39,129 nt of DNA from a phage: the sequence record PX309103.1. One strand, 5' to 3'. The translations under genes were made by a program, and so were the position numbers. Positions within the stretch are counted from its first letter, which is position 1. Every line of letters starts with the position of its first letter. The notes below the pieces were generated by a model. The model worked only from the letters and a program-made list of their open reading frames with translations. It had not been told where the DNA came from and did no database searches. Positions 10,628-12,328 of this stretch are shown here, piece by piece.

Positions 10628-12328
10628 ATGTCATACGATGACCAAGACGACGAGAGTGTCTTTCTGTATCACACCCAGTGTCCAGACTGTGGGTCCTCGG
10701 ATGCCAATGGTGTTTACTCAGATGGGCACATGTACTGCTTCGCCTGTGACCCTTCAGTCGCATGGAAGAAAGGAGACATGGAGTTGACCGAGGGATACAC
10801 ACCCTCAGGAGGTAGAAAGCAAGTGAGCAATCTGTTAACGTTCGGTGAGAACGCTGGACGATATGTCCCACTACCAGCCCGTAGTCTAAGCATGGAGATA
10901 TGCAAGAAGTACAGCTACTGGGTGGGTAACATGGGCGGCAAGATGGTTCAGGTCGCTGATTATTACGACAGGTCCGGGACCAAGGTAGGACAGAAAGTCC
11001 GAGACGCTGAGAAGAACTTCACGGCTATAGGTAGCGTCAAGTCTGACATGCTGTTCGGCTCTCAGCTCTGGAACGGTGGTAAGAAGATAGTCATCACCGA
11101 GGGTGAGATAGACGCTCTGTCTGTGGCTCAGGTGCAGGACGGTAAGTATCCAGTGGTATCACTTCCGTTAGGCTCCAAGTCTGCGAAGAAAGCGATGGCT
11201 GCGAACATTGAGTATCTCGACCAGTTCGAAGAGATAATCTTGATGTTCGACATGGATGAACCGGGTCGTCAGGCCATCGAGGATGCAGCTCCAGTCTTAC
11301 CAGCAGGTCGGGTTAAGGTTGCGTTCATCAACGGGTACAAAGACGCCAACGCTGCACTTCAGGCCAAGGACTTCAAGGCCATCACCGATGCTATCTGGAA
11401 CGCTAAACCTTTCGTCCCGGCTGGTGTGGTATCAGCAGCAAGTCTGAAGGACCGCACACGAGAGGCAATGCTTAAGGCAGAGACTGAAGGCCTCATGTTC
11501 TCGTCATGCACAACACTCAACGCGATGACCCTAGGTGCGCGAGCTGGTGAGCTTATCATGGTGACTTCTGGGTCAGGCATGGGTAAGTCTACCTTCGTCC
11601 GTCAGCTCCTCTTAGAATGGGGCAGGCGCGGTAAGCGTGTTGGCATGGCTATGCTTGAAGAGGCTGTAGAGGAAACAGTTCAGGACCTTATGGGTCTGGA
11701 CAATAACGTCCGTCTACGCCAGAGCAAGGAACTGAAGCAAGACATCTTAGAGGATGGACGGTTCGACGAATGGTATGACAAGCTGTTCGGAGACGATAAG
11801 TTCCACCTGTACGATTCATTCGCAGAGTCAGAGGAAGACACCTTGTTCGCTAAGTTAGCCTACATGGTGGACGGTCTCGACTGTGACGTCATACTGCTTG
11901 ACCACATCTCAATCGTTGTGTCGGGCATGGAAGATAACTCAGATGAACGTAAGACCATTGACCGCATCATGACTCGTCTCAAGAAGTTTGCGAAGACGAA
12001 GGGCGTGGTTGTCGTGGTCATATGTCACCTAAAAAACCCAGAGAAAGGTAAATCGCATGAAGAAGGACGACCTGTTTCAATCACTGACCTACGTGGTTCT
12101 GGTGCTCTCCGCCAACTGTCTGATACTATCATCGCCCTTGAGCGAAACCAGCAAGGTGATACTCCTAATATTGTTCAACTTCGTCTGCTCAAGTGTCGTT
12201 TTACGGGTGACACTGGAGTGGCAGGACACCTCGAATACAACAAGACGACAGGGTGGCTTGAACCGATTAGCTTCATTAGCAGCAGCGGAGAAGAGGATAG
12301 CGGCTCGTGGGAAGATACCGACTTCTAA
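10628..12328 (+). CDS. DNA primase/helicase (gp4 family)
   Basis: 566 aa; N-terminal Cys4 zinc motif CPDCG...CFAC, TOPRIM region, Walker [10 protein letters not shown]-terminal DTDF. Confidence 0.96.

Follow-up and report, generated by a model that had tools for sequence, protein, structure and literature searches.

Introduction

Two products of gene 4 are established by experiment in phage T7 (PMC2910064; PMC12658067). The shorter of them, gp4B, starts at Met64, and the M64L substitution abolishes it (PMC12658067). This 56-kDa form is produced in the same amount as the 63-kDa one, and what it does in vivo has been described as unknown (PMC2910064); it was also reported to be non-essential for replication (bioRxiv 10.1101/2024.07.25.605042). 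For the gene 4 considered here, the question is whether a short form is made as well and, if so, at which codon it would begin. An earlier note on the same DNA proposed a T7-like two-isoform arrangement and placed the internal start at an in-frame ATG at position 10778.

Our analysis indicates that a two-isoform arrangement, with gp4A and a shorter gp4B, is probably present in this phage. As to the start of gp4B, we lean, with some reserve, towards a GTG at 10823 driven by the motif AGGAGGT, with gp4A made from the ATG at 10628. The two-isoform arrangement as such is already known: it is that of T7 itself, and it is annotated in relatives that are about 95% identical. What is added here is comparative evidence that points to the GTG start, the apparent recurrence of such a GTG in several lineages, and the inconsistency of the reference annotations.

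The genome and gene 4

The window, i.e., the whole stretch of 39,129 bp that was analysed, is a complete linear T7-like genome of the genus Kayfunavirus (K1F-like), bounded by perfect direct terminal repeats of 180 bp (1-180 and 38950-39129). Its gene 4A (10628-12328, plus strand) encodes a primase-helicase of 566 aa and 62.5 kDa, a homologue of T7 gp4. The gene shares 99.9% identity with that of Escherichia phage BUCT788 and about 95% with those of K1F and CR44b. Homology to the T7 protein extends over the whole length, residues 5-565 aligning with residues 4-559 of T7 gp4 (PDB 6n7i) with E = 4.7e-234. The T7 gp4-type fusion of zinc-binding, RNA polymerase (TOPRIM) and DnaB-like helicase domains, as listed by Pfam for the homologues, is present. 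The four cysteines of the zinc site can be read from the sequence as Cys18, Cys21, Cys37 and Cys40 (codons at 10679, 10688, 10736 and 10745, plus strand). Gene 4A's Shine-Dalgarno (SD) sequence, TAAGGAG, occupies 10615-10621 on the plus strand, 6 nt 5' of the ATG at 10628.

Upstream of gene 4, a match to the phage RNA polymerase promoter consensus, AACTATCACCTTAGGGA, lies at 10559-10575 on the plus strand, and CR44b has a predicted promoter in the same place. The promoter core AACTATCACTATAGGRA occurs in 11 copies in the genome, between 2446 and 38370 (up to 3 mismatches; 0.11 copies expected by chance). In this genome-wide consensus search, none of the 11 copies fell inside gene 4, so a separate transcript for the short form was rejected and both starts would be carried by one transcript. 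T7 differs in this respect, having an extra promoter, phi4c, inside its gene 4. Of the 11 copies, the one at 10559-10575 diverges most; it has CC at positions 10-11 of the consensus, where nine copies have TA and one has TG.

The ATG at codon 51

The ATG named in the earlier note does exist. It occupies 10778-10780 on the plus strand as codon 51 of gene 4 (Met51), and the motif AAAGGAGA lies 5' of it at 10769-10776, with a single C (10777) between the two. The product of this site (10769-10780) would have 516 aa and a mass of 56.9 kDa. Its geometry, however, is unlike that of the phage's own genes. By aligned spacing we mean the count of nucleotides that separate the start codon from the position matched to the final G of GGAGG; at Met51, GGAG ends 2 nt before the ATG, and the aligned spacing is 1. 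As a reference, 36 starts were mapped from the K1F annotation onto the window, of which 35 have an SD match. The aligned spacing is 4-9 for 34 of these 35 starts, the last being a weak 4-nt match at 18. The published optimum of SD spacing is 5-9 nt (PMC7264876). An SD core (5 nt, at most 16 nt upstream) was found at 13 of the 239 internal in-frame ATGs of 29 window genes, or about 5%, and the pattern seen at Met51 is within this chance expectation.

Conservation was followed within the genus in 27 distinct full-length gene 4 sequences from IMG/VR and GenBank, with nucleotide identity down to 82.5%. Met51 is kept in all 27, whereas the GGAG before it is lost by synonymous change in 10: the Gly49 codon, the source of this GGAG, is GGA in 17 sequences, GGC in nine and GGG in one. 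W46, K47, K48, G49, E52, E55 and Y57 are conserved as strictly as Met51, which argues that the conservation of Met51 is the signature of a peptide motif and not of a lone start codon. A scan of IMG/VR for DNA encoding WKKGDME, written in IUPAC code, yielded, besides three chance hits, only two Kayfunavirus loci that were new.

Homology to T7 does not single out Met51 either. In the pairwise alignment, it pairs with Lys50 of T7 and not with Met64, and it lies 14 residues before the latter. T7 Met64 corresponds to Gln65 of the window and T7 Thr65 to Val66, which places Val66 one codon from the T7 start; the alignment of the crystallised 56-kDa T7 protein (1q57) begins at window residue 68. The ATG at 10778 is thus most likely an ordinary methionine codon of a conserved linker peptide, and the AAGGAG before it most likely a by-product of the Lys-Gly-Asp codons used in the sub-lineage of the window. 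What stands of the earlier proposal is the T7-like arrangement, which agrees with the homology and with a conserved internal in-frame start; its assignment to ATG 10778 fares poorly in view of the spacing of 1 and an SD that is not conserved.

The GTG at codon 66

Another candidate, the GTG at 10823 (Val66), lies 45 bases downstream of ATG 10778. The internal SD before it, AGGAGGT, occupies 10807-10813 on the plus strand, is formed by the codons Ser60-Gly61-Gly62 and is homologous to the SD of T7 gp4B. The proposed gp4B frame (10823-12328, plus strand) would encode 501 aa and 55.3 kDa and leave out the zinc-binding domain. Its start has an aligned spacing of 10, which equals that in T3, phiYeO3-12 and the K11-like group and is 1 nt beyond the range of 4-9 of the window genes. 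By calculated strength, the internal SD (-10.3 kcal/mol) is stronger than that of gene 4A (-7.5 kcal/mol). As a start codon, GTG is weaker than ATG. A rough initiation score of the Salis type, which is of illustrative value only, is about the same for Val66 as for the start of gene 4A and several hundred-fold lower for Met51.

Both candidate starts follow the Cys4 site and fall in the flexible linker that precedes the RNA polymerase domain, and both belong to the segment 48-66, for which AlphaFold gives pLDDT<50. Ordered structure is predicted again from about residues 67-70, so a start at Val66 would remove exactly the zinc-binding domain and the linker. The low pLDDT of residues 48-66 leaves unsupported another explanation that was considered, namely that Met51 is kept through burial in the zinc-binding domain.

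The site resembles that of T7 in several respects. In both phages, the SD GGAGGT comes from Ser/Thr-Gly-Gly codons of the linker, and the T7 SD corresponds exactly to window positions 10808-10813. In both, the start overlaps a TGA of the +2 frame (ATGA in T7, GTGA in the window), and the hairpin arms GAGGG/CCCTC adjoin the gp4B SD. T7, however, has an ATG at a spacing of 7, and the window a GTG at a spacing of 10. The gene 4B of T3 and phiYeO3-12, recorded as 'in-frame internal initiation', has GGAGG in common with the window site, and likewise the 10-nt distance to a start that is in frame and homologous by its place in the linker; it differs in having ATG (Met63) and another linker peptide.

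In-frame internal GUG starts are familiar from E. coli, where they give IF2-alpha/beta from infB and the 93/79-kDa forms of clpB. As proposed for the window, one ORF yields a full-length and an N-terminally truncated protein by means of an internal SD and a GUG. The proteins are unrelated to gp4, and the analogy is one of mechanism only.

Conservation of the signal in Kayfunavirus and across Studiervirinae

In the same 27 Kayfunavirus genes, Gly61 is always GGA and Val66 is always GTG, while the synonymous sites around them (Gly56, Thr58, Pro59, Gly62 and Asn68) vary. As a background, 153 codon columns are conserved and four-fold degenerate, and the codon itself is invariant in only 26 of them (17%). 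Within the genus, the codon-invariance statistic is modest (about 0.03), and there is phylogenetic relatedness among the sequences. One variant, L016, has a one-codon Gly insertion, yet its distance from GGAGGT to GTG is unchanged.

A broader comparison covered 117 loci with 43 distinct linker peptides. In 42 of the 43 linker types, GGAGG (10808-10812 in the window) precedes an ATG or GTG in frame, at an aligned spacing of 4, 7 or 10. At the T7-type position, only GG and Met/Val are conserved in a linker that is otherwise variable, a pattern that marks a nucleotide signal. Where Met is replaced, the replacement is always Val with the codon GTG, in six lineages (core Kayfunavirus, L037, L068/L072, L133, L134 and L135). 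GTG makes up 0.10-0.37 of the Val codons in the genes of these lineages, and the product of the six shares is about 1e-4; the share of GGA among Gly codons is 0.12-0.27. No Met occurs anywhere in the linkers of L037, L068 and L072, which would leave GTG as the sole possible gp4B start there. In L131, a metagenomic contig, the gene caller itself began the gene at the homologous GTG.

These data are consistent with the following mechanism. A single mRNA, transcribed from the promoter at 10559-10575 or from promoters upstream, would bear both in-frame starts. Initiation at ATG 10628 would give gp4A, the full primase-helicase of 566 aa. Ribosomes binding AGGAGGT, in the stretch that encodes the flexible linker joining the zinc-binding domain to the RNA polymerase domain, would start at GTG 10823, and the resulting protein of 501 aa, lacking the zinc-binding domain, would be gp4B. 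By analogy with T7, gp4B would act as a helicase, would lack template-directed primase activity and would assemble together with gp4A.

Relatives without the signal

A large protein search brought up a diverged, Kayfunavirus-like sister group made up of P0013-P0019 (88-90% identity), among them Kosakonia phage Kc166A, and of P0022, P0024 and P0025 (about 70%). In this Kc166A sister group, both GGAGG and Val are lost, while AWKKG.ME, and hence Met51, is kept. In the DNA of this group, no conserved SD was found before Met51: the versions there are AAGGAG, AAGGGG, AAGGGC, AAAGGCTCG and AAGGAACA. Two readings are possible. Either gp4B would have been lost from the group, or be dispensable there, or Met51 would be the start throughout the lineage. 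A loss would fit the reported non-essentiality of the T7 short form, and also the way in which SD and start codon have decayed together.

The signal is also absent from L080 and L082. Loci of the Kc166A type (L124, L125, L127-L130 and L132, with proteins P0013-P0019, P0022 and P0025) are natural candidates for phages devoid of gp4B. Among the protein sequences, those of P0064 and P0076, two T3-like clusters, carry Thr (TGGSKPT...) where the start Met of gp4B would be expected, and they may lack the short form.

Public annotation

In the records of K1F (AM084414) and CR44b (HG818823), gp4B is annotated at the Met51 codon, as annotation only. The CR44b record also mentions an 'alternative start codon Val at position 16', a residue that corresponds to Val66. 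Isoforms named '22B' are given for SH3 (L109), at Met35 inside the Cys4 zinc finger, and for SH5 (L110), at codon 101; both are marked 'No experimental evidence', and neither matches the conserved GGAGG-ATG/GTG signal. The 12 other records that were inspected have a single gene 4 product each, that of ST10 beginning at an internal codon. A literature search found no papers on K1F gp4B. Kayfunavirus records thus put gp4B at three different codons, while the comparative signal points to a fourth, the GTG, which matters for the accuracy of annotation.

Genes 3 and 3.5 likewise have internal 'B' forms in the K1F record, which suggests that its annotators treated internal ATGs generously. In the same record (L123), the DNA polymerase gene 5 is joined from two pieces, with gp5.3 within its span and gp5.4 sharing its end; gene 5 of the window (12532-14739) is one uninterrupted ORF of 735 aa.

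Weighing the alternative starts

The alternative closest to existing annotation is that gp4B of 516 aa is made from ATG 10778, either with the neighbouring AAGGAG as its SD or without any SD, in a purine-rich stretch that is open. No start codon is better than ATG, this one is predicted to be unpaired (P = 0.97), and K1F and CR44b place 4B exactly there. Moreover, Met51 is invariant wherever AWKKG.ME occurs, including the relatives of about 70% identity that lack GGAGG-GTG, and its position in a predicted disordered linker means that burial in the fold does not explain its conservation. Set against this are the spacing of 1, outside both the 4-9 of the phage's own genes and the published optimum (PMC7264876), and the GGAG that is lost in 10 of 27 Kayfunavirus genes and variable in the very group where the GTG site is missing. 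Met51 also aligns with Lys50 of T7 within an equally conserved peptide, a similar upstream core occurs by chance at about 5% of the genome's internal in-frame ATGs, and other annotators chose other codons, as in SH3 (Met35) and SH5 (codon 101). We consider it rather unlikely that Met51 is the start of gp4B. Judging from the sequence, it may still serve as a weak or additional start, and the GTG and Met51 models are not mutually exclusive. The same AAGGAG (10770-10775) could instead serve a TTG, Leu53 (10784-10786, plus strand), located 8 nt downstream, which would give an isoform of 514 aa. This spacing is within the normal range of the genome, whose gene 19 starts with TTG. The codon, however, is not conserved (CR44b has TTT, L014 has CTG); sister lineages lack the SD, which in the window is predicted to be mostly paired at this site (P(unpaired) = 0.28), and TTG is a poor start codon. 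Such an isoform appears highly improbable.

It might also be that no internal initiation occurs and only full-length gp4 is made, GGAGG being a Gly-Gly hinge with inherited codons and GTG an ordinary Val codon. The T7 short form was, after all, reported to be non-essential (bioRxiv 10.1101/2024.07.25.605042), with its role in vivo described as unknown (PMC2910064). Neither the Kc166A group nor L080 or L082 has the signal, Thr replaces Met in two T3-like clusters, and GTG at a long spacing makes a sub-optimal start. This account has difficulty with the invariance of GGA and GTG in the genus while adjacent synonymous sites vary, with the recurrence of GTG in six lineages, and with a variable linker in which only GG and Met/Val are kept. 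The joint loss of SD and start codon in the Kc166A group is likewise what is expected of a functional unit. We regard the absence of internal initiation as quite unlikely.

With GTG 10823 as the preferred start, a wider reading can be put forward more tentatively. It may be, at somewhat less than an even chance, that a GTG start of gp4B is used in Kayfunavirus and in at least five other Studiervirinae-like lineages, that the K1F, CR44b, SH3 and SH5 entries have gp4B at the wrong codon, that the hairpin shared with T7 helps to set the 4A:4B ratio, and that losses of the Kc166A type are natural tests of the role of gp4B. The current understanding of the T7-type system is left unchanged by our data, which are useful for annotation and would not surprise a specialist. 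A combination of SD and ATG/GTG that is strictly kept in most lineages and cleanly lost together in a few could guide experiments on the ratio of 4A to 4B in the hexamer. Since K1F is used in therapy and as an engineering chassis, the true internal start also matters for any recoding of gene 4.

The hairpin and the overlapping reading frame

A hairpin with five pairs, GAGGG/ATACACA/CCCTC (10790-10806, plus strand), abuts the 5' side of the internal SD. Its pair 10792-10804 is G-C in eight variants and A-U in seven, the two bases being synonymous third positions of codons that vary together (Glu55 GAG/GAA with Pro59 CCC/CCT). Overall, 98.7% of the cells are paired, and the observed score was reached by 1 of 500 shuffles. 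The covariation, which comes from a single pair, weakly suggests that the hairpin is maintained.

In the +2 frame, an ORF of 49 aa (10638-10787, plus strand), not preceded by an SD of its own, is by position the counterpart of T7 gene 4.1. In 26 of the 27 Kayfunavirus variants, this frame stays open as far as the same TGA. Translational coupling from this ORF was considered and set aside as unneeded, the ORF ending at 10787, 36 nt before GTG 10823, and lacking its own SD; the 4.1-like ORF is probably outside the gp4B mechanism. A second TGA of the +2 frame overlaps the proposed start (GTGA, 10823-10826), as does the ATGA at the junction of T7 4.1 and 4B. In L131, the homologue of the +2-frame ORF ends exactly on the GTG.
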